Below, piece by piece: positions 861 through 43,560 of a DNA stretch of 64,000 nucleotides. A model generated the notes under the pieces. It was not told the DNA's origin, did not search any database, and saw only the letters and a program-made list of their open reading frames with translations. The stretch covers positions 149,502 to 213,501 of the forward strand of contig CAIKZC010000001.1 in the NCBI GenBank assembly GCA_903831815.1. The letters run 5' to 3'. Made by a program: the position numbers and the translations under genes. The DNA comes from an uncultured bacterium (GTDB lineage Bacteria; Patescibacteriota; Minisyncoccia; Phycocordibacterales; UBA11359). The stretch's first letter is position 1, and every line of letters starts with the position of its first letter.

Positions 861-888
861 TAGTCATTATATACCAAGTATTAGCTTC

Positions 889-1003
889 AAAAATACGGAA
901 AAGTGTGTTGTGAGGGACTCACGGACGCCGACGGGCGGAGTGTGAAGGAAATTTCCAGCAGGAAATTTACCTGTGCCCGAACAACACACTTTTCCGTATT
1001 TTT
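889..1003. repeat. Copy 1 of an IR-flanked GC-rich core element. It is a perfect 23-bp inverted repeat, AAAAATACGGAAAAGTGTGTTGT (889-911 and 981-1003), enclosing a 69-nt GC-rich core.
   Basis: The arms and core are read directly from the sequence. The core GGGACTCACGGACGCCGACGGGCGGAGTGTGAAGG... is homologous to the cores at 9849-9905 (opposite orientation) and 17953-18013. It lies between the divergent recJ and HIT starts. Confidence 0.6.
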
Positions 1004-1020
1004 GATATATAATATCTGTT

Positions 1021-3900: not shown

Positions 3901-5199
3901 TTACTGTACCTCCTTCCAACTTGTGATATTCCAACCACCAGATGGACCGCTGGAGAAATTATAATTAGCTAAACCTGAATCATAAGTAACGGATCCGCCG
4001 CCATCAATGATAATTTGCTTTGCCGAGAGTGATCTGGCGCTCGTGCCACCCGATAGATGAAGAGTGCCGTTTTGAGCGACCAACACAACTGCGCCAACGC
4101 TACCATTTACCGTAAGAGCACTGCTACTATTACTTGTTGTAATAAGTAAAGGATAACTTCCAGCCGTACCTGATCCGGCAAAACTGGCACTTCCACCAAG
4201 GTTCATTATGCCATCTGAAATCAAAACTCCTCCTCCGGAACCATAACCAGGCGCCAAAGCTAAATCTCCGCCACCTGAAAACGTTACTGTGCCTGTCACA
4301 TAAATCGTTCCCGCTAAGGTCAAAAGCCCGCCACCATCCACCAACAAATTACCGTTAATTTTCATTGGACCGATTGTCGCACCCCTATAATCAACGTGAT
4401 AATTACCATTATATGTCGTACTGGCCGAACCATCAGCTTTCCAAGTTGCAATATTTTCATCAGTAATAGAAAAATCCTGAGCCGGAGGATCGGCACGAGA
4501 AGTATTACATGCTTTATTGTTAGTGGTGCCGGTTTGACAATATATCGTTCCTTGAGCACTAACTCCTTTTACCGTGTGACCCCACACGTCACCCACTCCA
4601 CTTGTGCCAACATTAAGTGAACCGACATAAGTTCCACCTCCAATAGTCGAAAAGGTGGAAGTGCTTAAATTTGCGGCTATAACCGAACCTGTAACAGTCA
4701 CTCCGTTATCTGCCGTCACTGATCCGTTAGAATATACGTTACCGTTAACCGTTCCTCCACCCGTGATTGAAAAACCTCCGATACCCGAAAGCACACCATA
4801 AAAGAAATCAACACCGACGCCGGCCACGATTACCGTGTGAATTTTTCTGAAATTATTATTAACGCTGCCGACCGCATCGATCGTTTTGGTTCCATTAGTA
4901 TTTGAAACTGTAGTCGTCGCGGTAAAACCGTTAATATTAAGATAAATCGGCACGGCATAATTTGTGATCATATTTCTTTTAACTCGAAAAACTGCATCCT
5001 CGGAACCAGAATCTGCCGCATACAAACTGGCTTTTGAACGTAAAAGATCGCTGGTCAAACGCAATTCGTTGACTATCGGATCGACGATTCCAAGTATAAT
5101 GGTCAACAATATCGAAGTACAAAACATGACGACGACCAAGATCGCTTGTCCCCTATTCCAGTTATCGTGATTTATATTTTTTCGTAAAAAATAATTCAT
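3901..5199 (-). CDS. Large Gly/Ser/Thr-rich pilus-associated protein with a pseudopilin-like N-terminus that lacks Glu+5 (GspK/PilX-like minor pilin or tip protein)
   Basis: The N-terminus is basic followed by a hydrophobic helix (NRG|QAILVVVMF...), then a long G/T/S/N-rich repetitive region. It is the last gene of the pilB-pilC-pilin operon. The TATCTTAAGATA palindrome lies 10 nt upstream of its ATG. Confidence 0.5.
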   Translation of the reverse strand: MNYFLRKNINHDNWNRGQAILVVVMFCTSILLTIILGIVDPIVNELRLTSDLLRSKASLYAADSGSEDAVFRVKRNMITNYAVPIYLNINGFTATTTVSNTNGTKTIDAVGSVNNNFRKIHTVIVAGVGVDFFYGVLSGIGGFSITGGGTVNGNVYSNGSVTADNGVTVTGSVIAANLSTSTFSTIGGGTYVGSLNVGTSGVGDVWGHTVKGVSAQGTIYCQTGTTNNKACNTSRADPPAQDFSITDENIATWKADGSASTTYNGNYHVDYRGATIGPMKINGNLLVDGGGLLTLAGTIYVTGTVTFSGGGDLALAPGYGSGGGVLISDGIMNLGGSASFAGSGTAGSYPLLITTSNSSSALTVNGSVGAVVLVAQNGTLHLSGGTSARSLSAKQIIIDGGGSVTYDSGLANYNFSSGPSGGWNITSWKEVQ

Positions 5200-5206: not shown

Positions 5207-5220
5207 ACTATCTTAAGATA
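5207..5220. promoter_or_regulatory. Palindromic motif ACTATCTTAAGATA (copy 1), 7-20 nt upstream of the ATG of the 3901-5199 gene
   Basis: A perfect 12-bp palindrome TATCTTAAGATA. The same motif recurs at 5767-5779, 29331-29359 (split) and 43546-43558, always just upstream of a minus-strand start codon. Confidence 0.45.
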
Positions 5221-5223
5221 AAA

Positions 5224-5730
5224 TTAATATGAGCCGCGCAAAACTATGGTCGTGTAAAAATTCCTACTAGTACTTGCCGTGCCGACCGTACTCGATAGCC
5301 CTAAAATGATTTTAATGGCTTGTGAATTTGTGCTGGTAGATAATCTGAATTCTAAATTATTCACATTCACTCCGTTTAAAGTGAGCGGGCCGACATACGA
5401 ACCGCTCGAATCCACGCTGATTCTATTATTAGATAGATAAAATTTAATTGTTTGAGGATTTCCACTAACATCTGTCGTGTTAAGCGTCAGCGCTCCGGTG
5501 CTGGTAGCCAACGTACTCTGAGCGACGTTAACCGAAGAAGCATTGCGAATATCTCGCGATATGCGCTCGAGTGAAAAGATTGCGGATGATTCCAAGTTTT
5601 TGGTCGCTTGAATGGTTTGATAAGTTTTGGTCAAAGATATCACCAACGCGATCACAACTCCAAGCAAAATAACCATAAAAGCCAAATAAAATAGCGTTTC
5701 GACCATCGTGAACCCACCGTTTTTTTTCAT
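5224..5730 (-). CDS. Type IV pilin / pseudopilin (prepilin-type N-terminal cleavage/methylation domain)
   Basis: The N-terminus is MKKNGG|FTMVETLFYLAFMVILL, with G-1, F+1 and E+5. Confidence 0.8.
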   Translation of the reverse strand: MKKNGGFTMVETLFYLAFMVILLGVVIALVISLTKTYQTIQATKNLESSAIFSLERISRDIRNASSVNVAQSTLATSTGALTLNTTDVSGNPQTIKFYLSNNRISVDSSGSYVGPLTLNGVNVNNLEFRLSTSTNSQAIKIILGLSSTVGTASTSRNFYTTIVLRGSY

Positions 5731-5766
5731 TATTTTTTTAAAAAAAATCTTTTTTCATAGGGTACT

Positions 5767-5779
5767 CTATCTTAAGATA
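5767..5779. promoter_or_regulatory. Palindromic motif CTATCTTAAGATA (copy 2), in the 51-nt gap between two pilin genes
   Basis: It reads AGGGTACTCTATCTTAAGATA. On the coding (minus) strand the motif is followed by CCCTATG plus a 6-codon mini-ORF, and then the pilin ATG at 5730. Confidence 0.45.
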
Positions 5780-5781
5780 AA

Positions 5782-8005: not shown

Positions 8006-9757
8006 TTATTCCGCTACGACACGCAAAACTTCCTCGATCGTCGTTTCGCCTTGAACCGCTTTGAAAACACCGTCTTCCAACATTGTGATCATGCCTTCTG
8101 TTTTGGCTTGTGCTTCAATGGTGTCCGATGTTGCGCCTTTCATAACCAAATCTTTTATGGTCGTAGACATTTTCAAAACTTCATGAATGCCGATACGTCC
8201 CTTGTATCCATCCTCCGCATCGGAACTTCCGATCGGTTTATAAAAAGGAATTTCTTTCCAAGTCGCAGTAGGTGCAACGACTTTTTCTTCAATCAAAATT
8301 TTCAAAACACGATTTAGGTCAACTAATTTGTTAAGTGAAGTCATCTCAGCTTCATCTAAGAAATATTTTTCTTTCTTTTCGGCAAGTCGACGAACCAAAC
8401 GTTGTGCTATAACGATATTAAGAGTAGAAACAAGTAAAAATGACTCGACTTTCATATCGAGAAGTCGTGGCATTGCTCCCGAGGCCGAGTTGGTGTGCAA
8501 AGTCGAAAGCACAAGGTGGCCTGTGAGCGCAGCGTTGATCGCAAGAGAAGCCGTTTCGTTGTCGCGAATTTCACCGACCATTATAATGTCCGGATCTTGT
8601 CGAACCAAAGTACGCAGGCCTGTGACGAAAGAGAAACCGATCTCGGGTTTGACTTGCGATTGATTGACTCGGGCCAATTGATATTCGATCGGATCTTCGA
8701 TCGTGGAAATATTTACGTCCGGCGTATTCAAAATATCCAAAACGGTATACAAAGTCGTCGTTTTTCCCGAACCGGTCGGACCAGTCGTAAGGATCATGCC
8801 AACAGTCGCTTTCATGGCTTGATGAATACGTTCCAAATTTTCGCCATGAAAACCTAGTTTCTCCAAAGTGTATCCGGCGGCGCTTTCTCGCAGGAGTCGC
8901 ATAACGGTTTTTTCACCGTAATAAGTCGGCAAAGTCGAAACACGGAAAGAAACTTTCTCCCCATTCATCTCGATCTTGAAACGTCCATCTTGCGGCAAAC
9001 GTTTTTCATCCAACTTCAAATTGGAAAGGACTTTGATACGCGCCGTAATGCCGCTGGCCGCATTTTTTGGCAAGACCATGGCGTCACGCAAAATACCGTC
9101 GATACGATATCTGATGAGCATATCGCTTTCGAGAGGTTCCATATGAATATCTGACGCGCCTTGTAAAATCGCATGTTTCAAAAGTGTTTCCACTATACGC
9201 ACGACAGGCAGATCTTCCGCTTGTTTCTTTAAATCACTGACACTGACATCTTCCCCTCCATTTCCGGACAACGATGTGATAGCGGCGGCATCTTTTTGAA
9301 TGAGATCGCCGAACTCAGCCTTCAAACTTTTTTGATACAACAAAACCGCGCTCTTAAGCGATTCACTATCTGTAAGGCGTGGCAAAATTTTTAGATCGAC
9401 TTTTTTCTTGATGAAATCGATGGCGCTCAAGTCCTCGGTATCAAGCATAGCCACTTCGAGCGAATCCTCGTTCTTTTTGAAAGCCACAATGTTGTGATTG
9501 CGGGCAATTGGTTCCGGAATAAGAGAAAGGACATCAAACGGAATCTTGGCGCCTTTCAAATCCACAAAAGGAATGCCGACAATATAGGCTTCCATGCGTC
9601 GCAAATCATCTTCGGTCATTTTGCCGGTGGTCACCAAATATTTTCCCAGATGAACATCCTTCTTTTTGGCTTCGATTTCCGCAGCGTCAAGATCGGCTCG
9701 GGAAATCAGTCCAGAGTCAATGATAAATTCCTTTAATTGTTTCTCTTCAATGTGCAT
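8006..9757 (-). CDS. pilB: Type IV pilus assembly ATPase PilB (GspE family). I place the start at the ATG of MHIEEKQLKEF; the ORF-track start is a GTG 20 codons upstream.
   Basis: It has an N-terminal GSPII-like domain, the Walker A GPTGSGKTTTLY, Asp and His boxes, and a TGHLVLSTLHTN motif. Confidence 0.9.
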   Translation of the reverse strand: MHIEEKQLKEFIIDSGLISRADLDAAEIEAKKKDVHLGKYLVTTGKMTEDDLRRMEAYIVGIPFVDLKGAKIPFDVLSLIPEPIARNHNIVAFKKNEDSLEVAMLDTEDLSAIDFIKKKVDLKILPRLTDSESLKSAVLLYQKSLKAEFGDLIQKDAAAITSLSGNGGEDVSVSDLKKQAEDLPVVRIVETLLKHAILQGASDIHMEPLESDMLIRYRIDGILRDAMVLPKNAASGITARIKVLSNLKLDEKRLPQDGRFKIEMNGEKVSFRVSTLPTYYGEKTVMRLLRESAAGYTLEKLGFHGENLERIHQAMKATVGMILTTGPTGSGKTTTLYTVLDILNTPDVNISTIEDPIEYQLARVNQSQVKPEIGFSFVTGLRTLVRQDPDIIMVGEIRDNETASLAINAALTGHLVLSTLHTNSASGAMPRLLDMKVESFLLVSTLNIVIAQRLVRRLAEKKEKYFLDEAEMTSLNKLVDLNRVLKILIEEKVVAPTATWKEIPFYKPIGSSDAEDGYKGRIGIHEVLKMSTTIKDLVMKGATSDTIEAQAKTEGMITMLEDGVFKAVQGETTIEEVLRVVAE

Positions 9758-9828
9758 GGAGAATAAGTGTGTTAAGTATAACAAATTAAATTCAAAAAAT
9801 CTCCACAAGATATACACGACTTGCGTAC

Positions 9829-9925
9829 AAGAATACGGTTTTCAGGGTCCGGATAGTTTTTCCGCTGAAAAACTTCCTCACACTCGCGCCGTCGCGCTCC
9901 GTGAGCCCCTGAAAACCGTATTCTT
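9829..9925. repeat. Copy 2 of the IR-flanked GC-rich core element. The 20-bp arms are AAGAATACGGTTTTCAGGG(T/G), and the core is in opposite orientation to copy 1.
   Basis: Arms at 9829-9848 and 9906-9925 match 19 of 20. The reverse-complemented core GCTCACGGAGCGCGACGGCGCGAGTGTGAGGAAG aligns with the copy-1 core at about 75% identity by eye. It sits between the divergent pilB and 10032 ORF starts. Confidence 0.6.
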
Positions 9926-10031
9926 TCCCGCAAGTTATGAATAAATTATGTAAATTTGACACCAGTAATGTTTTGTGATATTAAAGTAGAGGAAACTAGT
10001 ATTACTTTACCCATGAAAAGGAGTCCGCACA

Positions 10032-10478
10032 ATGAACACAGTTGCTAAACTGGAAGCTGAATTGCTGGAAATTGCGATTAAACGTGTGATTGCCGCCGGT
10101 CTTACAGTGAATGAAGAGGATGTGACACTCATCCTTCGTGTCAAAGGGCATGGTAGACATCATGACGGGTGGTCGACGGTGATTTCGGACGACGATTGGA
10201 CCAAGATCCTCGCTCTACCCTGGAAGTCGAATGTGGAAATAATGTTTCGAGCCCTGCGAGCAAGAAACAATGAACCTCTGACCGGAGAAGAATTGGAAGA
10301 CACCTTTGATGTGGGCACCGAAAGTTACGCCCTCGCAACTGAGGTAAATCGCTTCTTTCAGCCAAATTTCCTTCCCTTCATCCTCTCGGCCGTAACAACA
10401 CTGCCTCGGCGGAAAAGGCGTCAGGAGGGTAGGTACCGTTTATTCAACAAGAGGCCTCTGGCTAGCCCCGCCAAATAA
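10032..10478 (+). CDS. Hypothetical protein (148 aa) in a GC-elevated single-gene cassette
   Basis: A TTGACA-N17-TATTAA promoter lies at about 9953-9981 and an AAAGGAG RBS precedes the ATG. A terminator hairpin follows at about 10485-10530. I see no recognizable domain. Confidence 0.55.
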   Translation: MNTVAKLEAELLEIAIKRVIAAGLTVNEEDVTLILRVKGHGRHHDGWSTVISDDDWTKILALPWKSNVEIMFRALRARNNEPLTGEELEDTFDVGTESYALATEVNRFFQPNFLPFILSAVTTLPRRKRRQEGRYRLFNKRPLASPAK

Positions 10479-10867
10479 GCCATCGCCCCCATCGAGCCGC
10501 CTCTGGCCAGACAGGGGCGGTTTTCTTTTACTCTATTTTTTTGGGAAATTTGACAAAAATAATAAGTTGATATAAATTAATAGACAGCCTAGTTCCCAAT
10601 ACCATTTGCCGAACATTGATTGCCAATTGCTCGTGCAATTTGCAATTTCCGATTCCGCGTTTCCCGTAGCTTGGGTGCCCACGCACCCCCCCTCCGAAGG
10701 CCGCGCTTTCCCTTACCCACCGGGAGGCGCGGCCACTTTTTTTACCTCAATTTGACTTATTTCGTCAGATAGCCTATAGTTAAGGAGTCCAAGTTCGCCA
10801 CCAGCGAACTTCTTTTTTTAGAAAAACCGGCGAAAAACGACAATTTGCCGGAATAATCACAAAAAAC

Positions 10868-12091
10868 ATGTTTGATCTAAAAGTTATCAATTCCGTACTC
10901 GAGCAGTTGCAAGAAGAGCGCGGAATTCCAAAAGAAAAAATTATTGAGGCTATTGAAGCCGCTTTGGCGACCGCCTACAAGAAAGAATACGGCAAAAAAG
11001 GCCAGATTGTTCGCGCTACTTTCAATTTAAATACCGGCGCTACCGAATTTTCTCAAGTCAAAATTGTCGTTGATGAAACTAAAGTCCTTTTTGAGAAAAA
11101 AGAAGGTGAAGAAGCCGAAAAAGAAGAAAAAACCGAAAAAGTTGTCAAAACTAAGAAATCCAAGAAAGCTGCCGAGGAAACTGAAACTCCGGTCAATCCT
11201 GACGATGAATTTAAGGTGCATTTCAATCCGGAACACCACATTTTGTTAGATGATGCCAAGAAAATTAAAAAAGACGCCAAAATTGATGACGAAATCGTTT
11301 TCCCACTTGAAGTTAAAGGAGATTACGGTCGCATCGCTTCTCAAACCGCAAAACAAGTCATTATTCAGAAAATTCGCGAAGCTGAAAAAGTTTCTGTGCT
11401 CGGCGAATACGGCAAACGCGAAGGCGAAATCGTTTCCGGAACCGTTCAGAGACTTGAAAGGGGCAATGTTTTCCTTGATATGGGGCGAACTACAGCCATT
11501 TTGCCATATGAAGAGCAAATTCCAGGCGAGCGATACCGACAAGGAGAACGCGTTCACGCTGTGCTTCTCAAAGTTGAAGACGGTGCTCGAGGCGTATTCA
11601 TTAAACTTTCACGTTCAAATCCAAAATTCTTGGAAAAACTTTTTGCGCAAGAAGCTCCTGAGGTTGTCGGCGGTACTGTAGTTATAAAAGGTGTGGTACG
11701 AGAAGCCGGTTCACGTTCAAAAGTGGCCGCTAGCTCAAATGATGAACACGTTGATCCTGTTGGATCACTAGTTGGTCAACGAGGCGTGCGTGTTTCGACT
11801 GTTATGAGTGAGCTCGGTGGTGAGAAAATCGATATTATTGAATGGTCAGCTGATCCTAAAAAATATATTGAGGAATCTCTTTCTCCGGCCAAAGTTCAGA
11901 GTGTAGAAATTGATGAGGCTGAACACAAAGCAACGGTGACTGTTGCCGAAGATCAGCAATCTCTTGCAATTGGTAAAGGTGGACAAAACGTGCGACTTGC
12001 CGCAAAACTTACCGGTTGGAGAATCGACATTCAATCAACAAAACCTGAAAAAGATACCAAAAAAGACGATGATGAAGATGAGAGTGAGTAA
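10868..12091 (+). CDS. nusA: Transcription termination/antitermination factor NusA, carrying a Lys/Glu-rich low-complexity insertion
   Basis: It has the NusA N-terminal domain, S1 and KH domains (LAIGKGGQNVRLAAKLTGWRIDI). The KE-rich insert is at about aa 75-105. Confidence 0.9.
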   Translation: MFDLKVINSVLEQLQEERGIPKEKIIEAIEAALATAYKKEYGKKGQIVRATFNLNTGATEFSQVKIVVDETKVLFEKKEGEEAEKEEKTEKVVKTKKSKKAAEETETPVNPDDEFKVHFNPEHHILLDDAKKIKKDAKIDDEIVFPLEVKGDYGRIASQTAKQVIIQKIREAEKVSVLGEYGKREGEIVSGTVQRLERGNVFLDMGRTTAILPYEEQIPGERYRQGERVHAVLLKVEDGARGVFIKLSRSNPKFLEKLFAQEAPEVVGGTVVIKGVVREAGSRSKVAASSNDEHVDPVGSLVGQRGVRVSTVMSELGGEKIDIIEWSADPKKYIEESLSPAKVQSVEIDEAEHKATVTVAEDQQSLAIGKGGQNVRLAAKLTGWRIDIQSTKPEKDTKKDDDEDESE

Positions 12092-12116
12092 GATTTAAAA
12101 AAACAAACCAGCAAAC

Positions 12117-12146
12117 AAAAAACTTCCCTCCGGAAGTTTTTTGTTT
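12117..12146 (+). terminator. Rho-independent terminator after nusA (AACTTCC...GGAAGTT + T-run)
   Basis: Read directly from the sequence. Confidence 0.7.
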
Positions 12147-12290
12147 GTGAAAGGTTATCCACCACTATTACTTTGACGCAGCAAATAAAATAACTATACT
12201 ATTAGCTAGATAAGATTTGCTGTTGGCACGGTGCCAAATAGCAATTGTTGAATTTTATCGGTAACAACCATTGGCGAAGGAGCAGATACC

Positions 12291-12461
12291 ATGGCGAAAG
12301 CGAAGCTATACGTTCCACCCAAAGTTCTGGGTGTAACTACAAGCCCCGATCTGACCAAGTGCATGCAAAACACTGGCGGGATCCAGCCGCGCTCGACGTT
12401 TCGGATTTATCGACAGCAAGTTGTACCTCAACGGCGAACTCTAAGCGCCTGCTTGAGATGA
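12291..12461 (+). CDS. Possible small ORF (56 aa) in a GC-rich micro-cassette. Its stop overlaps the ATG of a further 15-codon ORF (ATGA).
   Basis: A TTGACG-N16-TATACT promoter is at about 12174-12202 and an AAGGAG RBS sits 7 nt upstream of the ATG at 12291. A strong terminator is at 12507-12545. An alternative is a non-coding RNA; the ORF-track ORF 12245-12505 is in another frame and lacks an RBS. Confidence 0.2.
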   Translation: MAKAKLYVPPKVLGVTTSPDLTKCMQNTGGIQPRSTFRIYRQQVVPQRRTLSACLR

Positions 12462-12930
12462 CGAACGATCTGTTCGAAAATCTCGGCGGCATCACCAATA
12501 ACTAACCCAGACAGTCCCACATTGGACTGCCTGGGTTCGTTTTTTATGTAAAAATTATGTCCAAAAAAGTTATCCCCTTTTTACATTTGACCGAAATTAA
12601 TTAAATAATTATACTTTTACTTGGATGTACGAACGTGATTTGCTGGCGTATCCAGCCGTCACCGCGCGATTCCGCGCCTTATCCCCGTTGGCCATAGGCC
12701 AGAGGAGGAAGCATGCACCGCGTCGCTTTGATTGGGACTCATGGTCCGCCCCTGCGAAAAGCGCAGCGGGCGCTGAAGACCGCACGGAGATCCTGATCGT
12801 CAAGAAGACCGATCGAACGGCGTATGCCGGATAGACCTGAGCAATTTGCTGCTCGGGTCTGTTTTTTTGCAAAATTCCCATTTTTATATATAGTATAGGA
12901 CATATTCATTAATAGATAAGTAAAGAAAAT

Positions 12931-14958
12931 ATGAACGCGTATATCATTTTTGCATTAGTAAGTTCGGTGGTCGCTATTGTTTACGGTCTCGTTCTCGCTC
13001 GAATTATTATTAAAAAAGATGCCGGTAGCGAACGAATGCAAGAAATCGCTAGCGCTATTCAAAAAGGCGCCAAAGCTTATCTCAATCGCCAATACAAAAC
13101 CGTTGCCATTGTTGCCATTGTTCTCTTCGCAATTATTTGGCCACTTATCGGTTTCACAACTGCTCTTGGTTTCGTGGTTGGAGCTGTTTTCTCAGCGCTC
13201 GCCGGATATATTGGAATGAACATTTCTGTGCGTGCTAACGTTCGTACAACTGAAGCTGCCAAAAAAGGAATTAAAGAAGCACTTTCTCTCGCTTTCCGCG
13301 GAGGCTCTGTTACAGGTTTGCTCGTTGTCGGTCTCGCTCTCCTCGGCGTTACCGGGTTTTACGCACTTTCAAACGGTGACACCAAAGCTCTCATTGGTCT
13401 CGCTTTTGGTGCCAGCTTAATTTCTGTTTTCGCTCGACTTGGTGGCGGTATTTTCACCAAAGCTGCTGACGTCGGCGCCGATCTAGTTGGAAAAGTTGAA
13501 GCCAATATTCCTGAAGATGATCCACGAAATCCTGCTGTCATTGCCGACAACGTTGGAGACAACGTCGGAGATTGCGCCGGTATGGCCGCCGATCTTTTTG
13601 AAACATATGTTGTGACAGCTATCGCCGCAATTTTGCTCGGCGGAATTATTTTCAAAGATGCTACCAAAGAAGTTTCTGACGCTGTCATAATGTTTCCTCT
13701 CGTACTCGGTGGTGTTTCAATTTTCTGTTCAATTATTGGAACATGGTTCGTGCGACTTGGAAAAAGCGGAAATATTATGAACGCTTTGTACAAAGGTCTC
13801 GCAGTTTCTGGAATTTTGGCCGCAATCGCTTTCTACTTTGTGACTAAAATGATCATGGTTGGAAATGGTTTGTTCACTTCAAATCAATTATTTATCTGTT
13901 CACTCATCGGACTTTTGTTAACTGCTGCGCTTGTTGTCATTACTGAGTACTACACTTCGACAAAATACGCGCCGGTCAAATCTATCGCCAAAGCTTCTCT
14001 CTCCGGTCACGGCACCAACGTCATTCAAGGTCTCGCTATTTCAATGAAAGCTACCGCACTTCCTCTCATTGCGATTGTGCTCGCAATTCTTGGTTCATAT
14101 CATTTTGCCGGATTGTACGGTATCGCTGTCGCCGCTGTTGCTATGCTTTCAATGGCCGGAATTATTGTAGCTATCGATTCATACGGTCCAATTACTGATA
14201 ACGCGGGAGGTATTGCCGAAATGGCGGAGTTGCCACAAGAAGTTCGTGATGTTACTGATCCGCTCGACGCTGTTGGAAACACAACCAAAGCCGTTACCAA
14301 AGGGTATGCCATTGGTTCTGCTGGGCTTGCTGCTCTCGTTTTGTTTGCTTCATATACACAAGAATTTGCAAACATGGGACATTCTCTAGTTTTCAGTTTA
14401 AGTGATCCAAAAGTTATTGTCGGTTTGTTTATCGGCGGACTTCTTCCATACTACTTCGCGGCAATGTGCATGGAAGCCGTTGGTAAAGCAGCTGGCGCTG
14501 TCGTCGAAGAAGTCCGCCGCCAATTCCGCGAGATCGCCGGCATTATGCAAGGCACCGCAAAACCAGATTATGAAAAGTGTGTCGACATCGTTACCCTTGG
14601 CGCTATCAAAGAAATGATTTTGCCTTCTCTCATCCCTGTCGTCGCTCCAATTCTAGTTGGATTTATTTTGGGTCCTGTTGCCCTCGGCGGTTTGCTCGTC
14701 GGTTCAATCGTTACCGGTTTGTTCGTCGCTATTTCCATGACTTCAGGAGGAGGTGCTTGGGACAATGCCAAGAAATTTATTGAAAAAGGTGAACATGGTG
14801 GCAAAGGTGGAGATGCTCACAAAGCCGCTGTCACCGGAGACACTGTCGGCGATCCATACAAAGATACCGCCGGTCCAGCCATCAACCCAATGATCAAGAT
14901 CTTGAACATTGTCGCTCTCCTCATCGTGCCATTCCTCATTAAATTCTTGATTAAGTAA
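12931..14958 (+). CDS. hppA: Membrane-bound proton-translocating pyrophosphatase
   Basis: The 675-aa polytopic protein carries the H+-PPase signatures [20 protein letters not shown] and [19 protein letters not shown]. Confidence 0.95.
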
Positions 14959-15058
14959 TCGTAAAACGCAAAAGATTGACTTTAAAATCTGATTTGCTAG
15001 CATATTAGTACTCAGACGAAAAAGGATCCGAAAGGTGTAAGTGCCTTAGGAGCCTTTT

Positions 15059-15592
15059 TCATTTACGGCCAATATAGGTCTTAAGATTCTCCAAGTAATC
15101 ATATAATTCTGAACCCATTCCTCTATACAAAGAAGAAGCAAATTTTTTGTTGGGAAACAATATCTTTTTGAATCGTTTTTCTTCAATCAAAAATTCTACC
15201 AGCAATTTATAATCACCATCCCCAGAAACCAAAATTACTTTATCAAAATCTTCTTTTCTATAAAGCTTCTTCATCGCATAGAAAATAATATCCGAATCGA
15301 CATTTCCTTTTTTATTCCCTACCATCCCCTCAAGATGTCTCTTGAACACAACAATAAACCCGGCATTCTGAATTTTTTCATACAACTCTTGTGCCTTGTC
15401 CGTATCCTGAACATAACCTAAATGATAATAGGCTTTATCAACGCTATATTTTTCAGCAAGATAAACTCTGAATCTTTTCAAATCAATAGTCCAAGGATCA
15501 ATTTCCTTTTTCGTCGTGCCCATATACAAATTCTGTCCATCAATAAACGCGATATTTTTCATTTCTTCTAGAGCGTAGCAACAATTTTTCAT
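15059..15592 (-). CDS. NYN-domain (LabA-like) protein, a predicted RNase. An alternative start is at 15562 (MKNIAFIDG).
   Basis: Motifs FIDGQNLY, VDSDII and LVSGDGDY match the NYN/PIN-like fold (PF01936). Confidence 0.75.
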   Translation of the reverse strand: MKNCCYALEEMKNIAFIDGQNLYMGTTKKEIDPWTIDLKRFRVYLAEKYSVDKAYYHLGYVQDTDKAQELYEKIQNAGFIVVFKRHLEGMVGNKKGNVDSDIIFYAMKKLYRKEDFDKVILVSGDGDYKLLVEFLIEEKRFKKILFPNKKFASSLYRGMGSELYDYLENLKTYIGRK

Positions 15593-15814
15593 TTCATTCT
15601 GAAGTTATCCCCGTAAGAAGATACTGCCCAATACACAAAAAAATAACCCAGAAATACTAAATATCCCTAAAAATAAGGGTATTTTGTTAAAACAATCTAC
15701 TCAAACTGCAAAATTGCTTGACATTTGACTCAAAATCTGCTATACTATTAATGCGAGAGATTCGAATAACGCTGTGTTGTTTGAATACTCTTGGTTCTTT
15801 GAGTCAGGTGAAAT

Positions 15815-15928
15815 ATGAAGACCTTCATGAAAATCTGTATCGAAATTGCTACCGTGGTCTGTGTTGGTTTGGCGGTCGTCATCACTGGCTGGCGGTTCCT
15901 GCGGGGAACCTATCGCTGGCCATCATGA
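15815..15928 (+). CDS. Small hydrophobic peptide (37 aa, single predicted TM helix), MKTFMKICIEIATVVCVGLAVVITGWRFLRGTYRWPS
   Basis: A strong TTGACA-N17-TATACT promoter is at 15718-15746 and an AGGTGA RBS precedes the ATG. A terminator hairpin is at about 15965-15995. It is absent from the ORF track because it is under 60 aa. Confidence 0.3.
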   Translation: MKTFMKICIEIATVVCVGLAVVITGWRFLRGTYRWPS

Positions 15929-16073
15929 CACAGGAGTCGCTTTTCAGATAGCGTTTAATATCTGGAGCCCATGCGAAAGTGTGGGTTTTTTCTTGCAAAA
16001 TTTTTCATTTCCCGCTAAAGTAAGGCGACCAAATTAATATATTTATAAATCACGACGTTTAATTTACACAACC

Positions 16074-17105
16074 ATGAAACCAGAATACAAAATCACCGCT
16101 ACCAACAAACTTCCGCACAGCGAAGTTGAAATAACCGTTGAATTACCGGCCACCGCGCTTGATGAATATCGAAAAAAGGCTATCACTGCGCTTGGTAAAG
16201 AGGTGGCAATGGACGGTTTCCGTAAAGGTCATGTGCCGGAAAATGTTTTGGTTTCAAAGATTGGTGAAGGTCGCATTTTGGAAGAAGCTGCTGAACTTGC
16301 TCTGCAAAATGTAACTCCGGCAATTCTCGCCGACGAGAAAATGGATTTTATCACTCAGCCAAAAGTTGCGGTTACAAAATTGGCGACAGGAAATCCTATC
16401 GAATTCAAATTAACAATTGCTCTCATGCCTGAAGTTGGTTTACCTGATTACAAAAAAATTGCCAAAGAAGAGATGGCTAAAAAAGTTGAAGAAGTTGTGG
16501 TCACCGATGAAGACGTCGAAAAAGTTATTGAAGACATTCGCAAGCGCATGGCTCCCCTTCCGGAAAAAGAAGGTGAGGAGCCAAAATTGCCGGAACTCAA
16601 CGAAGAGTTAATCAAACAACTTGGAAAATTTGAAGACGTGGCTGATTTCAAAATAAAATTAAATGAAAACATTAAACAAGAACGTTTAAATCAACAGCGC
16701 GAGAAAAAGCGTATTGGTATCGCCGAAGATTTGGTTTTGGAATGCAAGATTGATTTGCCGGAAGCGTTTGTCGAACAAGAAATCGCTCTTATGCTCGCTC
16801 GTTTCAAAGACGATATCTCTCGCATGGGTCTAAAGTTTGACGAATATTTGAAACACATCAAGAAAACTGAGGAAGATCTCCGAAAAGATTGGCGAGTTGA
16901 TGCTGAGAAAAAAGCCAAATTGGAATTGGTTTTTGTGGAAATTGCCAAAGCTGAAAAAATAAAACCGGAAGAAGAAAAAGTTTCCAAAGAAGTCGAGCAC
17001 CTCATTGAACATTACCCAACCGCCGACAAAGACCGCGCGAGAGCTTATATCATAAAGCAACTGACACAAGACCTTGTCTTCGAATTCCTAGAGTCACAGA
17101 AATAG
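16074..17105 (+). CDS. tig: Trigger factor, short form lacking the PPIase domain
   Basis: The N-terminal ribosome-binding domain with GFRKGHVP is joined directly to the C-terminal arm domain, for 343 aa against about 430 typical. It lies upstream of clpP as in the canonical tig-clpP arrangement. Confidence 0.8.
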   Translation: MKPEYKITATNKLPHSEVEITVELPATALDEYRKKAITALGKEVAMDGFRKGHVPENVLVSKIGEGRILEEAAELALQNVTPAILADEKMDFITQPKVAVTKLATGNPIEFKLTIALMPEVGLPDYKKIAKEEMAKKVEEVVVTDEDVEKVIEDIRKRMAPLPEKEGEEPKLPELNEELIKQLGKFEDVADFKIKLNENIKQERLNQQREKKRIGIAEDLVLECKIDLPEAFVEQEIALMLARFKDDISRMGLKFDEYLKHIKKTEEDLRKDWRVDAEKKAKLELVFVEIAKAEKIKPEEEKVSKEVEHLIEHYPTADKDRARAYIIKQLTQDLVFEFLESQK

Positions 17106-17125
17106 AAAATAAAAATATAAGCAAC

Positions 17126-17152
17126 AAAAAACTTCCGATTGGAAGTTTTTTG
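17126..17152. terminator. Bidirectional terminator (AAAAAACTTCCGATTGGAAGTTTTTT) between the convergent tig and rsmE
   Basis: A perfect hairpin with A-run and T-run flanks. Confidence 0.7.
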
Positions 17153-17158
17153 TTGCCA

Positions 17159-17908
17159 TTACAAAAGAAAAAGTGTCGCTGCCACAATAGCGGCGGTTTC
17201 CGCGCGCAGTGTCGCATCACCGAGCGAAAGAATATTTACATCGCGTTTTTTAAATTGTTCTATCTCCGTATCGCTCCAACCGCCTTCCGGCCCAATGAAA
17301 ATTGCGATTTTTGTTGTGACCTGCCCCTTTCCACTCGCATCTGCAGAATTTTTTAATTTCTGTGCAATAAATTCTGCAGTTTCCATCAAGCCCTCTTCCA
17401 AATGGAAAGCAACGGCCGGTATTTTTTCTTTTTGAATTTCATTGAGCGCTTCATCAAGTGAAATAATCTGGCGAAGTTCCGGCAACGTTCCTCTACCCGA
17501 TTGCTCAGATGCTTCCTTCACAATTTTCAAACCGCGCTCATGATTAAAATTTGTTTTAACACTTCGTCCAGAAATTATCGGAATAAAATGAGTCACGCCG
17601 ATTTCCGTTCCCTTTTCCAAAATCCATTCAAAATTATCTTTTTTGATCATGGAAACATACAAAAATATTTCGCGCGATTGTTTTACCGAATTTTTTGTCA
17701 TTTCTAAAACTTCGAAAACTCCTTCGTCTTTAGAAAGCAAATCGACTCGCGAACGATATTGAAATCCGCTGTTGTCGAGCAAAATAATTTCATCACCTTT
17801 TTCCAAACGAAAAACATTTTTAAGTTGGTGCAACAAATCAGCATCATCTATTCGCACACTTTTCGCTTCTCCAATTTTCTGCTCAATAAAAAAGTTATGT
17901 AACCTCAT
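17159..17908 (-). CDS. rsmE: 16S rRNA (uracil1498-N3)-methyltransferase RsmE
   Basis: The 249-aa protein has a PUA-like N-terminus and a SPOUT C-terminus (GPEGGW...E). Confidence 0.8.
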   Translation of the reverse strand: MRLHNFFIEQKIGEAKSVRIDDADLLHQLKNVFRLEKGDEIILLDNSGFQYRSRVDLLSKDEGVFEVLEMTKNSVKQSREIFLYVSMIKKDNFEWILEKGTEIGVTHFIPIISGRSVKTNFNHERGLKIVKEASEQSGRGTLPELRQIISLDEALNEIQKEKIPAVAFHLEEGLMETAEFIAQKLKNSADASGKGQVTTKIAIFIGPEGGWSDTEIEQFKKRDVNILSLGDATLRAETAAIVAATLFLL

Positions 17909-17920
17909 GTAAATGATTTT

Positions 17921-18045
17921 ACACTAAACAAAACCGAAAACATACTTTTGAGTGCCTTGCGCAGCGCGACTGGCGCGAGCGGAGCGGACGGCCAGTAGGC
18001 CGGAACGCGTGCAACTCAAAAGTATGTTTTCGGTTTTGTTTAGTG
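17921..18045. repeat. Copy 3 of the IR-flanked GC-rich core element. A perfect 32-bp inverted repeat, ACACTAAACAAAACCGAAAACATACTTTTGAG, encloses a 61-nt GC-rich core.
   Basis: Arms are at 17921-17952 and 18014-18045. The core contains AGCGCGACTGGCGCGAG, matching AGCGCGACGGCGCGAG in copy 2. It lies 13 nt upstream of the rsmE start, in the divergent rsmE/clpP intergenic region. Confidence 0.6.
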
Positions 18046-18123
18046 TCACCATTTTTGAAGTTTTACGTCTACTCTGCTATACTCCCCGTGTAGCAATTAC
18101 AACCAATTTAACCCTTAAAATAT

Positions 18124-18696
18124 ATGAACCTTATCCCAACAGTTATCGAAAAATCTCAAAACGGCGAGCGGGCATACGATATTTACTCACGCTTGCTCAA
18201 AGAGCGTATTATTTTCCTCGGTGGTCCGATCGACGACGATAGCGCCAATATTGTCATCGCTCAATTACTTTTCCTTCAATCTGAAGATCCTAAAAAAGAT
18301 ATTTCCATGTACATCAATTCTCCTGGTGGATCCGTCACAGCCGCTCTCGCCATTCTCGACACCATGAATTTTATTAAATCAGACGTTTCAACCGTTTGTG
18401 TCGGTCTCGCTGCTTCTGCTGGCGCACTTCTCCTCTCAGCTGGCGTCAAAGGCAAGCGTTTTGCTCTCACCAATTCCGAAATTATGATTCACCAACCATC
18501 AGGTGGAGCTGAAGGGCGCGCTGCCGATATTGAAATCACCGCTAAACAAATTATAAAAATTCGAGAAAACCTCAACAAAATTTTGGCTGCCAACACTGGA
18601 CAACCACTTTCAAAAATCCAAAAAGACGTTGATCGCGACTTTTTCATGAGCGCCGAAGAAGCCAAAAAGTACGGCATCATAGACAAAATCCTATAA
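18124..18696 (+). CDS. clpP: ATP-dependent Clp protease proteolytic subunit
   Basis: The 190-aa translation has the Ser-His-Asp triad context ([19 protein letters not shown]). Confidence 0.95.
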
Positions 18697-22192: not shown

Positions 22193-22251
22193 CACTCTTA
22201 TTATCGAAGTCACAAAAAAACCGCCATAACAGGCGGTTTTTTTGTTTCGTG

Positions 22252-22322
22252 TGCGGGATGGGAGAATCGAACTCCCGCCTACAGTTTGGAAAACTGCAGT
22301 TCTACCATTAAACTAATCCCGC
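22252..22322 (-). tRNA. tRNA-Gly (anticodon UCC)
   Basis: I folded it by hand. The acceptor is GCGGGAU/AUCCCGC, the anticodon stem GCAGU/ACUGU with loop UUUCCAA, and the T-arm GGGAG-UUCGAUU-CUCCC, for 71 nt. CCA is not encoded. Confidence 0.85.
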
Positions 22323-22371
22323 AATATGACTGCAATGAAAAGACTATACCATACAACACAAAACCTCGCAC

Positions 22372-22689
22372 TTATTTCATCGTATCATTATTTATTTTCT
22401 CGATTTTCGACAAAACGCTACTCAAATCATCACCAGGCGCAGTTTTATTTCGTTTTATATAGCCACACACAACACATTTGTTGGAAAGAATAAATTCATC
22501 TTTTTCCATCTCGATTTTTATCGGCTCCATCATACCGCCACATTTTTCGGCCCGATCTCCCGGAAATTTATCGACATGTTTGCTCCACAAACAAGTCGGG
22601 CAGTGGTTGGTGTAGCCACTTCCCTTCACTTCGCGGCTGCAATGACCGCAAACGAAATCTTCTTTATTTTTCTGAAACTTTAGACTCAT
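22372..22689 (-). CDS. RNHCP-domain protein (Cys-rich zinc ribbon)
   Basis: It carries the GYTNHCPTCLWSKH motif characteristic of the RNHCP domain, plus multiple CxxC pairs. Confidence 0.65.
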   Translation of the reverse strand: MSLKFQKNKEDFVCGHCSREVKGSGYTNHCPTCLWSKHVDKFPGDRAEKCGGMMEPIKIEMEKDEFILSNKCVVCGYIKRNKTAPGDDLSSVLSKIEKINNDTMK

Positions 22690-23098
22690 GGGTGTTCAAA
22701 AAAATTTTCATTAATTCTACATCTCTCAGATCTTTTTCTCTTGCCAGTTCCGATTTAAATTTAATAAGTTCCGTTAATGGTAAAAATGGTAAACCCTCAA
22801 TGATATCTGCATTTTTTATCAATTCATCGGTATCCGGTCGATAATTTTTATATTTATAATTTGAAAACACCTCAGTATCGCCCTTAACCAATAGTTTACA
22901 ACGCAAAACTCGCCAGAAAAACCATTTTCTTTTCCAGCCGTCGTTTTTTAGTTGTTGAAACAACTCTTTATTTACCAACAGATCAACATCCCTGGCCGGT
23001 CTAATTCCATGAGCTTCCATGACACCCCCTATTATAATATATTGACCGAGAGGTAAATTTAGTGATTTTACCCTTTCGAAAATAGAAGGATTATTCAT
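22664..23098 (-). CDS. Putative minimal nucleotidyltransferase (NTase-fold) protein
   Basis: IIGGVMEAHGIRPARDVDLLV fits the G[GS]x9-13Dh[DE]h NTase motif. Its stop region overlaps the downstream RNHCP ORF by 26 nt. Confidence 0.45.
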   Translation of the reverse strand: MNNPSIFERVKSLNLPLGQYIIIGGVMEAHGIRPARDVDLLVNKELFQQLKNDGWKRKWFFWRVLRCKLLVKGDTEVFSNYKYKNYRPDTDELIKNADIIEGLPFLPLTELIKFKSELAREKDLRDVELMKIFLNTHESKVSEK

Positions 23099-23107
23099 AA
23101 CAAAATG

Positions 23108-23180
23108 TCGGAGTGCAGGGATTCGAACCCTGAGTCATCTGCTCCCAAAGCAGACATGTTAGCCGTTACACCACACTCCG
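23108..23180 (-). tRNA. tRNA-Pro (anticodon UGG)
   Basis: Hand fold: acceptor CGGAGUG/CACUCCG, anticodon stem UCUGC/GCAGA with loop UUUGGGA, T-arm CAGGG-UUCGAAU-CCCUG, 73 nt. Confidence 0.85.
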
Positions 23181-23325
23181 GTAGAAACAATACTATCACA
23201 CGTACATAAAAATAACTAGCAAAAAAACAGTTAATTTGGCTAATTTCTTCGAGAGAATTCTAAAGGACATTCCTAGTCAGAGAAATGTCCTTTAGAAAAT
23301 CCCAGTGACCTATTGCAAAAACCTA

Positions 23326-23700
23326 CTACAAAATTAGATTCTCAATAAACCTAACCTTAGCCTTCTTTGAAGCGGTGTCTACTCGTATAGCAATGAGCGC
23401 CGCCGACCATTCCATCTCATTAATTCCCTTTTCCTGCAAATAAGTCTGAATAACCCTGGTAAATTTCTTGATCTTGTTCGGACTCATGTTATCTTCCGGT
23501 CTGTAACCAGACCGACTATCATCTCCACCCGTTTCACACGAAACAGTCTTAACTTCCACAAAGCACAGCTTCTTGGCCTTTTTGGCCACAATATCCAATT
23601 CTCCCCACTTCCGGCTATAATTTCTTTCCAAGACCTTGAACCCATGTTTCTTGAGAAACACACAGGCAATATCTTCACCGAACCTCCCTATTTTGTTCAT
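23326..23700 (-). CDS. yraN: YraN-family (UPF0102) endonuclease
   Basis: The 124-aa protein has G.FGEDIA..FL...GF.VLERNY and GELDIVA....FVEVKT motifs. Confidence 0.8.
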   Translation of the reverse strand: MNKIGRFGEDIACVFLKKHGFKVLERNYSRKWGELDIVAKKAKKLCFVEVKTVSCETGGDDSRSGYRPEDNMSPNKIKKFTRVIQTYLQEKGINEMEWSAALIAIRVDTASKKAKVRFIENLIL

Positions 23701-24158
23701 TTTATTGGTTTTTTACTTAGAATTAATAATTTACGCTCGATTCATCACACAAATTTACCCAGACGCACATTGCTTTTATCGCTAAGTTTCATGAATAACA
23801 ACACTCTCTATGTTTCACATGAAACCTTTTAGCTGAAAGTACGACAAAAGGTCTATTTTTAGGCACATTTCACCAAAATGTCTATAGTTTTATAGCCATT
23901 TATTGGACATTTTTGACTGTCTTTTATACACATGTCCCCAGAGTTATCCACATAATTGTTGAAAAATATAGGTATTTCTGTTTACAGAAACCTAAAGGAC
24001 ACATCGATTTCAAAGACTTCCTCAAGCCTAGCAAATAGAGATAAAATATTTATAAAATTTTCTATTTTCTTTTTAGAAAAATTTTAGACCTACTTTAGAC
24101 AACAAAAATCGCCATTTCATTGGCGATTTTTGTTTTGCTCTAATTTTTGTTTTCTTTG

Positions 24159-24232
24159 TGGTGCGGCCAGGGAGAATCGGACTCCCATCTCATCCTTGGC
24201 AAGGACGTGTTCTACCACTAAACCATGGCCGC
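24159..24232 (-). tRNA. tRNA-Gly (anticodon GCC), with an encoded 3' CCA and an unusual T-loop UCCGAUU
   Basis: Hand fold: acceptor GCGGCCA/UGGCCGC, anticodon loop UUGCCAA, T-stem GGGAG/CUCCC, then ACCA at the 3' end. Position 55 is C rather than U. Confidence 0.75.
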
Positions 24233-24352
24233 AAATATCCAACTGAATATTTATCAATCGATTATACAGAAAAATCAGAAAAACACAAAATCAGTTCGCC
24301 AAATATTTATTCATTTTGGTTTTTTGACAATTTGCGCTATGATTGTGTTACT

Positions 24353-24424
24353 GCACCCGTCGTTCAATGGATAGGACAATAGTCTTCGGAACTATTGATG
24401 TGGGTTCGATTCCTGCCGGGTGCA
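24353..24424 (+). tRNA. tRNA-Arg (anticodon UCG)
   Basis: Hand fold: acceptor GCACCCG/CGGGUGC, D-arm GUUC/GGAC, anticodon stem AUAGU/ACUAU with loop CUUCGGA. The T-arm GUGGG-UUCGAUU-CCUGC has two G-U pairs. Confidence 0.75.
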
Positions 24425-24483
24425 CAGTAAAAATCGCTTTTATTTAGCGATATCTTAGTAGATAATAAAGTCGCACCAAGCAA

Positions 24484-43125: not shown

Positions 43126-43536
43126 TTATATAGCCGTCGAACCGATTCCAATAATAGAATCGATTGTGCCTAGAGTTTGGCCAATCGGAGAACAACTTGG
43201 TGGCACCGTGGGCACTGTTTGTTGGCAAGATATTGGAGTCGGAACGTAAGAACCAAGGACTTGGGGGCCTGACTTCCAAATATTATAATTTGCGCGAACC
43301 AAAGAAGTTAGCGGATTGTAAAAAAAACTCTCAGGACTTCCTGCCGCAGATTTATCAAGAACTGTTATCATCGTTCCCGGATTGTAATAGCATGTACAAT
43401 ACACAACGTTAATTATCGGACCTCCGTAATATACGCCAACTGCCTTAGCTACTTTTCTCGGAAAAGGATATAAAAGACTGACTATTGCGACCACAACGGT
43501 AAGAATGCAAATAAATGAAATAATAATTTTTTTCAT
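43126..43536 (-). CDS. Small secreted Cys-containing protein (136 aa) with a signal peptide
   Basis: The N-terminus is MKKIIISFICILTVVVAIVSLL. On the coding strand TATCTTAAGATAGTGTAACCCT lies immediately upstream of the ATG. Confidence 0.55.
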   Translation of the reverse strand: MKKIIISFICILTVVVAIVSLLYPFPRKVAKAVGVYYGGPIINVVYCTCYYNPGTMITVLDKSAAGSPESFFYNPLTSLVRANYNIWKSGPQVLGSYVPTPISCQQTVPTVPPSCSPIGQTLGTIDSIIGIGSTAI

Positions 43537-43545
43537 AGGGTTACA

Positions 43546-43558: not shown

Positions 43559-43560
43559 AT

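Follow-up and report, generated by a model that had tools for sequence, protein, structure and literature searches.

An uncatalogued family of hairpin repeats in Patescibacteria with a conserved three-way-junction core that behaves like a mobile repeat

Introduction

Hairpin-forming miniature inverted-repeat transposable elements (MITEs), such as Correia/NEMIS of Neisseria, ERIC/IRU, YPAL and RUP, have conserved terminal inverted repeats, a target-site duplication and an interior that does not covary, and REP/REPIN units are mobilised by RAYT Y1 transposases. In the Patescibacteria, or Candidate Phyla Radiation (CPR), genomes are tiny and streamlined and repeats are thought to be rare. Here we describe a family of repeats with three copies in a 64,000-nucleotide stretch of DNA from an uncultured bacterium of the Minisyncoccia (lineage UBA11359; assembly GCA_903831815.1, contig CAIKZC010000001.1, positions 149,502 to 213,501 of the forward strand), called the window below. 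Each copy is a hairpin in which long, perfectly paired, copy-specific arms enclose a conserved GC-rich core, one strand of which folds as a three-way junction of helices P1, P2 and P3. The family is previously uncatalogued, is Patescibacteria-wide and consists of non-coding hairpins of about 100-130 bp.

Like hairpin MITEs, the copies are small (97-126 bp in the window), non-coding, multi-copy and intergenic, would form long hairpins if transcribed, are patchy between relatives and may supply promoter or terminator functions. They differ from MITEs in that the ends vary, no duplication is seen and the conserved, covarying part is central. The outer arm ends differ, and only copies 1 and 2 share their outer 10 nt, AARAATACGG; an initial annotation of the window, which had the arms differing completely between copies, was right that they are copy-specific and overlooked this shared end. 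With REP/BIME, REPIN and RIP/RIB sequences the copies have in common that they are extragenic palindromes at gene ends, terminator-like or mRNA-stabilising, with recognition of a folded strand, and RIP elements also have a conserved centre, which binds IHF, between inverted REPs (PMC1525189). REP arms, however, are conserved, GC-rich and 20-40 nt long, whereas here the arms are AT-rich (30-42% GC) and copy-specific and the centre is a three-way junction of 65-72 nt. The insertion of insertion sequence (IS) elements into palindromic REP sequences is a precedent for nested palindromes (PMC1525189). IS1397, ISKpn1, IS621 and ISPpu9/10, which have REP targets, resemble the nested arrangement described below for a Saccharibacteria genome, but they are full elements with transposase genes, and the unit here is 70-96 bp and non-coding.

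PATEs, which derive from IS200/IS605, and integron attC sites are alike in that the secondary structure of one strand is conserved while its sequence covaries, and in lacking classical terminal repeats and target-site duplications. PATEs differ in having similar subterminal hairpins of their own at both ends and in inserting 3' of a fixed target tetra- or pentanucleotide; here P2 and P3 are adjacent but dissimilar hairpins, and the left flanks of Saccharibacteria copies end in GMA, too weak a signal for a target. The attC sites differ in having their own R''/R' core sites (GTTRRRY) and in being recognised at the stem rather than the apex; the copies described here have no RYYYAAC...GTTRRRY termini, and their neighbours are housekeeping genes. 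Template switching at quasipalindromes also yields two-sided arm changes in arms that stay perfect (PMC7202029), but it is a mutational process, not an element family, and covers the arms only. By its sequence the element is most like a non-autonomous palindromic repeat of MITE or REP kind, yet it departs from each known class in the features that define that class: its ends are not conserved, and it has no target duplication, no REP head and no attC core sites.

Results

A hairpin family recovered across Patescibacteria

Perfect 19-mer inverted-repeat seeds with a spacer of 40-90 nt occur 23 times in the window and not once in any of 20 shuffles, so such inverted repeats are not a product of chance. 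The arms of copy 1, perfect at 889-911 and 981-1003, extend to 25 bp around a 69-nt spacer (Table 1). All three copies fold as a long P1 closed by a three-way junction, at -54 to -78 kcal/mol with z scores of -8.6 to -12. Their cores have 58, 58 and 75% GC and their arms 30, 42 and 30% (copies 1, 2 and 3), in a window of 41% GC, and the conserved module takes in the innermost bases of the arms (..GAGGG / CCC..). The core pattern of copies 1 and 2, CACGGA-N4-GACG-N4-GAGTGTGA, has two matches in the window against 0.04 expected. Two further inverted repeats with spacers of about 60 nt (14433-14519 and 35648-35741) lie inside coding regions, lack the core and were set aside as chance.

Table 1. 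Coordinates of the three hairpins and of adjoining features in the window.
Feature	Position	Strand	Description
Copy 1, whole hairpin	887..1005	+	sense/folding strand toward HIT; -67.9 kcal/mol, z -11.9; 81.6 bits
Copy 1, 5' arm	887..911	+	TCAAAAATACGGAAAAGTGTGTTGT; pairs perfectly with 981-1005
Copy 1, core	912..980	+	three-way junction; P1 base 914-916 / 976-978
Copy 1, P2	920-922 / 940-942	+	CAC / GUG; internal loop GGA 923-925 / GA 938-939
Copy 1, P2 apex	926-929 / 934-937	+	stem; loop GACG 930-933
Copy 1, P3	947-956 / 961-971	+	loop AGCA 957-960
Copy 1, 3' arm	981..1005	+	alignable to the 3' side in relatives, including the empty site of L194
Copy 2, whole hairpin	9829..9925	-	sense strand toward pilB; -53.7 kcal/mol, z -8.6; 83.9 bits
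Copy 2, arms	9829-9847 / 9907-9925		19 bp, perfect
Copy 2, core	9848-9906		59 nt
Copy 2, P2	~9877-9904		+ coordinates
Copy 2, P3	~9851-9875		+ coordinates
Copy 2 with extra imperfect outer stem	9819..9935	-	ACTTGCG 9819-9825 / CGCAAGT 9929-9935 (7 bp)
Copy 3, whole hairpin	17921..18046	+	divergent core subtype; sense strand toward clpP; -78 kcal/mol, z -12
Copy 3, arms	17921-17953 / 18014-18046		33 bp, 100%
Copy 3, core	17954-18013		60 nt
Copy 3, P2 stem	17964-17967 / 17973-17976		loop GACUG 17968-17972
Copy 3, P3	17989-17993 / 17998-18002		loop AGUA
Plain bidirectional terminator	17121..17156	.	tig/rsmE convergent junction; not a family member
Predicted clpP promoter	18055..18083	+	TTGAAG-17-TATACT; just outside copy 3

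A search of 185,579 species, each represented by one genome, with a degenerate P2 pattern gave 88 matching stretches. About 40 of these are true copies with the same layout, all from metagenome-assembled genomes of Patescibacteria (Saccharibacteria, Paceibacterota, Yanofsky-, Taylor- and Zambryskibacteria, Minisyncoccia); the remainder are chance matches in high-GC genomes. The related CPR genomes, where the initial annotation had suggested looking, thus do carry further copies. We built a covariance model, R1, from 26 copies of other genomes, with copy 3 absent from the training set. On the window it scored copy 2 at 83.9 bits, copy 1 at 81.6 and copy 3 at 28.3 (E about 1e-7), with the next best match at 11.7. 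Copy 3 is, by this score, a true but divergent family member, and recovery of all three copies by a model made from other genomes bears out the original reading of a three-copy family in which a structured core is conserved and the paired arms are specific to each copy. Neither R1 nor a broader model, R2, run with filters off, found window copies beyond these three.

The initial annotation had recognised no known RNA family here, and Rfam 15 agrees: the window reaches the gathering threshold only for four tRNAs, and searches in E-value mode with copy 1, with 9700-18200 (copies 2 and 3) and with variant loci gave noise only. Plasmids, phages, viral contigs and IMG/VR gave no similarity to the core, apart from one chance pattern match, and we found no description of such an element in the literature on Patescibacteria/CPR. 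In the rsmE/clpP spacer of a more distant relative (L096, 1953-2026; ClpP 81%) a 20-bp perfect hairpin encloses another GC-rich core of 34 nt, GAACGGGTTAGCGAGTCAGCGAGCGCTTTAGTGA, which the models do not recognise and which may be a degenerate form or a separate family.

The core is a covarying three-way junction

The conserved GC-rich module is 65-72 nt long. In the MAFFT alignment of 26 copies its consensus consists of the base of P1; P2, in which CAC/GUG is followed by the internal loop GGA/GA and by a 4-bp G/C stem that ends in the loop GACG; P3, a stem of 7-10 bp and free sequence with an AGNA loop; and a short 3' junction. Compensatory changes are found at 15 of the 19 predicted pairs. 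Across 54 copies, standard pairs fill 92% of pair cells, compared with 62% after column shuffling and 41-66% with slid partners, and 325 pair cells are changed on both sides against 86; this larger alignment was fitted to the model and somewhat favours the structure, and the 26-copy alignment independently agrees. Covariation, for which the initial annotation had proposed to test the arms, is strong in both P2 and P3 and at the base of P1, and about 14 unpaired positions (U, GGA, GACG, GA, A-G-N-A, G) are at least 85% conserved. The subtype of copy 3 exchanges the CAC/GUG of copies 1 and 2 for CGC/GCG, which confirms the P2a helix. A pseudoknot between the GACG loop and a CGU of the junction was rejected since it is not conserved across copies, and a K-turn or sarcin-ricin motif in the P2 internal loop was rejected by reasoning, as the sequence misfits the canonical motifs.

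In the model orientation G-U exceeds A-C by 23:5 in the core helices, 20:8 in the arms and 43:13 overall; the copies are not independent and these ratios are indicative only, pointing to a single folding strand, as RNA or as single-stranded DNA.

Two variants (L073 and L078) carry one to three extra hairpins and a CGCAAG motif between P2 and P3. In L078 (6024-6200) three additional hairpins are placed there, giving a predicted six-way junction, and the hairpin-CGCAAG insert is common to both variants. In L073 (2988-3462, minus) a cluster that extends past the end of the contig, upstream of an uncharacterised gene, contains four to five diverged units that resemble the family and are spaced at about 100 nt; these units combine the extra hairpin, CGCAAG and a second P2-like module, CGGA-AGAC-GACG-GUCU-GAGG. 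TRF called no tandem repeat in this cluster, the units being too diverged.

Copies are gained, lost, replaced and inverted between related genomes

The window, which belongs to a Paceibacteria (Parcubacteria) genome close to Taylorbacteria, was compared with syntenic contigs from relatives at the level of the genus (RsmE 78-81%, HIT 83-88% identity), in which copy density is 3-5 per 20-37 kb, against 3 in the 64-kb window. At the site of copy 1, between recJ and HIT, the spacer in the closest relatives, L194 and L195, is 63 nt long, lacks the element and is alignable to the 3'-arm side, while L193 and L196 have a core of the copy 1 type in minus orientation (plus in the window) within different outer arms. 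All 66 nt of the core are the same in the window and in L193 (100% identity), whereas the HIT gene beside it is only 80% identical at the DNA level, and the L196 core differs from that of copy 1 only in the P2b stem. L193 additionally holds an orphan copy of a window-like 5' arm. Cores of the copy 1 type, with nothing but compensated changes in the 4-bp P2 stem, also stand at other loci: at the 3' end of PPase (L189), between L28 and NUDIX (L193) and upstream of pilB (L188). Because P3 bases are free in the family and yet identical across genomes that have diverged by 20%, recent copying or transfer explains these cores better than constraint.

The other loci give a similarly uneven picture. 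Upstream of pilB, L188 has an orthologue of copy 2 with homologous outer arms, including GCGTACAAGAAT of the outer stem, but with a P3 of the copy 1 type, and L189 and L191 are empty, L191 retaining a single sequence like a 3' arm. At clpP/rsmE the element is present in L189 and L191, and L188 is empty, with an 88-nt spacer and both promoters intact. The 3' end of PPase is occupied by a different core subtype in each of L188, L189 and L191 and is empty in the window. Between the convergent L28 and NUDIX genes the arms of the L193 copy overlap both stop codons, and in L196 the two genes overlap without an element. The empty sites at clpP/rsmE (L188), recJ/HIT (L194) and L28/NUDIX (L196) contain no palindrome and at most one arm-like sequence. 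Taken together, sequence comparison indicates that copies are gained, lost, overwritten and inverted between congeneric genomes. These empty sites, the recurrence of one core elsewhere, the flipped orientation and a 100% identical core beside an 80% identical gene are the strongest signals in the data, and the initial annotation did not foresee them. Beyond the genus, 345 kb of clpP loci from other Paceibacteria (ClpP 64-83%) gave no R1 match, one weak R2 match and one comparable hairpin.

Within single genomes the copies are also related to one another. About 25 nt of arm are common to two copies of the L189/L193 genome, and a Saccharibacteria genome, CAYSZI, has at least five near-identical units of about 96 bp (L028, L057, L070, L075 and L079), with the same core in L019 of that genome, within different inner arms, and also in L086/L093. 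The CAYSZI units share an imperfection of the inner arm (GATAC-ACTTTTT vs GATACGACTTTTT) and lie within locus-specific outer stems of terminator type, set off by 3-6 unpaired nt on each side (e.g. AAAAACTCGT...GACGGGTTTTT).

Two-sided changes in the arms

Between the window and L191, 6 of 19 inner arm pairs of copy 3 are changed, all on both sides and none on one side only. Mismatches in 790 arm pairs comprise 20 G-U and 28 others, and G-U is thus no commoner there than other mismatches. Arm length varies between orthologues, and the 5' arm of copy 1 is longer in the window by 12 nt, whose reverse complement is found on the 3' side, in L196 as well. The two-sided changes, the spectrum not dominated by G-U and the length differences suggest that the arms are kept perfect at the DNA level, not by slow compensation in an RNA. 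Of the initial proposal of compensatory stem evolution, the two-sided changes stand, while the mismatch spectrum fits concerted evolution of the DNA better. The likely route would be intrastrand template switching, with correction or extension of a quasi-palindrome, a known mutation process at such sequences (PMC7202029); alternatively, recombination between the inverted arms could keep them complementary and would also flip the core, as at recJ/HIT.

Copies in conspecific short-read metagenome contigs with identical ClpP touch two contig ends: L001 starts in the core/3' half of copy 3 and L004 about 50 nt downstream of it. The hairpin or repeat may break assemblies at this point.

Position relative to genes, terminators and promoters

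In the window all three copies lie between divergent genes: recJ/HIT (copy 1), pilB (T2SSE) and an open reading frame (ORF) of 148 aa (copy 2), and rsmE/clpP (copy 3), at 26-28, 71 and 12 nt from the respective minus-strand start codons. The initial annotation had taken this to be a constant property, and it does not carry over to the family. Among 38 copies from about 25 genomes, judged with crude ORF calls, about 7 are in divergent, 11 in convergent and 19 in tandem contexts, and a gene 3' end lies within a few bases of an arm in 27 of 41 cases, a position held by most of the family and by none of the window copies. In tandem contexts the folding strand is antisense rather than sense by 13:6.

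A makes up 50% of the outer 10 nt of the 5' arms, and the 3' arms are accordingly T-rich, on both strands. Family members therefore have the sequence features of a bidirectional terminator, an A tract and a T tract on either side of a stable hairpin, and the whole element resembles an intrinsic terminator of this kind whose apex is oversized and folds on itself. At the convergent tig/rsmE junction a plain hairpin (AAACAAAAAACTYCC / GGRAGTTTTTTGTTT) is found in the window and in L189, and in L191 a family member fills the same 98-nt gap. This plain hairpin shares its arm, AACAAAAAACTTCC, with one at 12112-12147; the arm occurs four times exactly and once with one mismatch (54661) in the window against 0.27 expected, and the relatives have the same plain hairpin type, AAACAAAAAACTCCC. 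By these counts, convergent gene ends carry another repeated hairpin family, simpler than the first.

The outer end of the 3' arm of copy 1 merges into the TGnTATATA/TATAAT box of the HIT promoter region (1004-1012). The predicted clpP promoter is conserved in relatives with and without the element, which places copy 3 upstream of it and outside the clpP transcript. As predicted from sequence, the neighbouring mRNAs exclude the element, and the flanking promoters lie downstream of it. Candidate promoters within the arms of copy 3 (TTTACA-17-CATACT, reading into the core on both strands) were rejected, as they match at only 9/12 and are not conserved in L191.

Window genes and candidate partners

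The labels PGK, T2SSF, T2SSE, NusA, PPase, trigger factor, RsmE, ClpP, RNase Y, HU, RNHCP and UPF0102 come from precomputed Pfam matches on identical or syntenic contigs. The only recombinase found in the window scan is a Xer-like tyrosine recombinase (29948-30973), 12-29 kb from the copies. In L189, a weak R2 match with 29-nt imperfect arms (765-876, 31.6 bits) lies directly downstream of a Xer-like tyrosine recombinase gene; another weak R2 match is at L188 1534-1593 (21.7 bits). The window encodes two NYN-domain (PIN-like nuclease) proteins, at 15059-15592 (minus) and 31523-32095. The first adjoins the 3' end of PPase, where relatives carry a family member, and in L189 an NYN gene (11944-12453) is near the family copy of that genome.

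Between 45364 and 56655, large ORFs without Pfam matches surround a PrgI-like protein (50272-50682) and a TraG/VirB4-like P-loop ATPase (51340-53175), and the block looks like a type IV secretion or conjugation-like apparatus. Since dnaA (57992-59356) and dnaN (59566-60666) follow yidC (56652-57383, minus), the chromosomal origin is probably within 57.4-59.6 kb of the window. With dnaA/dnaN setting the origin near 57.7-59.5 kb, the three copies show no consistent strand relative to replication (copies 1 and 3 on plus, copy 2 on minus; n=3).

A palindromic 15-mer, (A/T)CTATCTTAAGATAA, occurs three times (5207-5221, 5766-5780 and 43545-43559; 0.17 expected), just upstream of the minus-strand genes 3901-5199, 5224-5730 and 43126-43536, in or near a pilin-like cluster, and may be an operator or promoter motif. 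The four tRNA genes (22251-24425) are Gly-TCC, Pro-TGG, Gly-GCC and Arg-TCG; both Gly genes are followed by a small A/T-flanked ACAAAAA...TTTTTGT hairpin (22212-22245 and 24101-24134).

Discussion

The family behaves like a mobile repeat rather than like a regulator of neighbouring genes. The reading that we favour, at even confidence, is a non-autonomous, structure-dependent mobile or gene-converting hairpin repeat: whole hairpins or cores would be copied between loci, a putative trans-acting factor would recognise the folded module as single-stranded DNA or RNA, and DNA-level concerted evolution would keep the arms complementary. Recognition of a folded single strand is suggested by the conserved unpaired nucleotides together with the preference for G-U over A-C. 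The window copies may sit in promoter-bearing spacers because such sites are permissive.

Several results weigh against this reading. Among conspecific contigs (7 covering copy 1, 7 covering copy 2 and 3 spanning copy 3) there is no polymorphism of presence or orientation; one low-coverage contig, L178, has two uncompensated substitutions and is uninformative. Comparison of filled with empty sites at clpP/rsmE, recJ/HIT and L28/NUDIX, whose flanks have diverged, gave no target-site duplication, and no conserved terminal sequence was found. No transposase, reverse transcriptase, Y1/HUH protein or RAYT is among the 40 window ORFs scanned against Pfam, a few small ORFs lying outside that scan, and none of the approximately 40 P2 matches is a cargo version with a coding insert between P2 and P3. 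Template switching is deduced from comparison of diverged sequences. Lastly, the subtype of copy 3 has been kept at one locus over genus-level divergence with its P2 module almost unchanged and its arms and P3 changed, a retention that resembles purifying selection for a host-level function, and functional RNAs typically combine conserved loops with expansions of the junction such as those in L073 and L078.

These last points are also the case for a functional structured RNA, which we consider possible but distinctly less probable than a mobile repeat. The core would be a trans-acting small RNA or a domain of mRNA 3' ends, with the arms as a stem that serves in processing, termination or protection (cut by RNase III or blocking an exonuclease, for example), and the copies would be selected paralogues whose mobility is incidental. 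Three covarying helices with about 14 conserved unpaired nucleotides, the one-strand G-U bias, a junction that takes extra hairpins as RNA variable domains do, arms that are A-rich on the 5' side and U-rich on the 3' side like a terminator, and conservation across CPR classes all fit, as does copy 3, where the three orthologues have an almost invariant P2 and a covarying P3 (GGCC/GGCC, AAAGUC/GACUUU, GCC/GGC). Such an RNA would not, however, be expected to lie in inconsistent orientation to its neighbours, mostly antisense in tandem contexts, nor to be flipped at the orthologous recJ/HIT site. It has no conserved promoter upstream, and the arm of copy 3 leaves only 12 nt before the rsmE start codon; patchiness among close relatives, arm mismatches in which G-U does not dominate, and P3 sequences identical between genomes whose genes differ by 20% speak against it too. 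An RNA role of the core is nevertheless compatible with mobility, and the two are not exclusive.

The initial annotation had also raised insertion of a small element into palindromic targets. In this form only the core with a few inner stem bases would be mobile, entering the loops of existing palindromes such as terminators, and the arms would be the target. The CAYSZI units, separated by unpaired nucleotides from terminator-type stems that differ by locus, support this part of the proposal, and the L191 element in place of a plain terminator, the position of most copies at gene 3' ends and the IS elements known to target REP palindromes (PMC1525189) agree with it. The sites without an element in L188, L194 and L196 do not, as none has a palindrome; no terminator is expected between the divergent genes that flank the window copies, and copies of one genome share arm sequence. 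As a general account we hold it improbable.

Two readings that treat the element as a local switch fare far worse. The window by itself might suggest an inverton, with the arms as recombination sites and the core flipped to regulate one divergent gene: inverted repeats bracket a short segment in divergent promoter regions, the recJ/HIT core differs in orientation between genomes and a tyrosine recombinase is encoded nearby. Yet arms that differ between copies offer a recombinase no shared site, nothing in the GC-rich core of 59-69 bp resembles a promoter, the promoters on either side are outside the element, most members are at gene 3' ends, the conspecific contigs show a single orientation, and the recombinase is Xer-like and distant, which leaves this reading very improbable. 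Slighter still is the chance of a cis-regulatory riboswitch, leader or operator of the adjacent genes, to which the 5' intergenic position in the window and the structured core would point. The neighbouring genes are unrelated to one another, in the window as well as between genomes, the predicted promoters are downstream of the elements, and orthologous genes do without the element; the empty orthologous sites effectively refute the proposal.

A mobile or gene-converting repeat is thus the account that we prefer. A bolder version of it, which is doubtful as it stands and which we rate slightly below the functional RNA, is a new CPR module whose fold is itself the substrate of spread, either a 'homing' junction that a structure-specific enzyme copies in either orientation into the apex of hairpins, or a small ribozyme or ribonucleoprotein scaffold riding on terminators; here the conserved centre would define the mobile element.

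The family reaches several copies per tens of kb in some CPR lineages and is absent from their neighbours. It inverts the usual logic of small repeats, with a conserved centre and free ends, and offers a clean natural example of what appears to be concerted evolution of long palindromic arms. A covarying junction with invariant loops points to a putative partner, a structure-specific recombinase or transposase or an RNA-binding protein. Annotation pipelines will miss these elements, and the covariance model can be used both for a census of the family and for the search for that partner.

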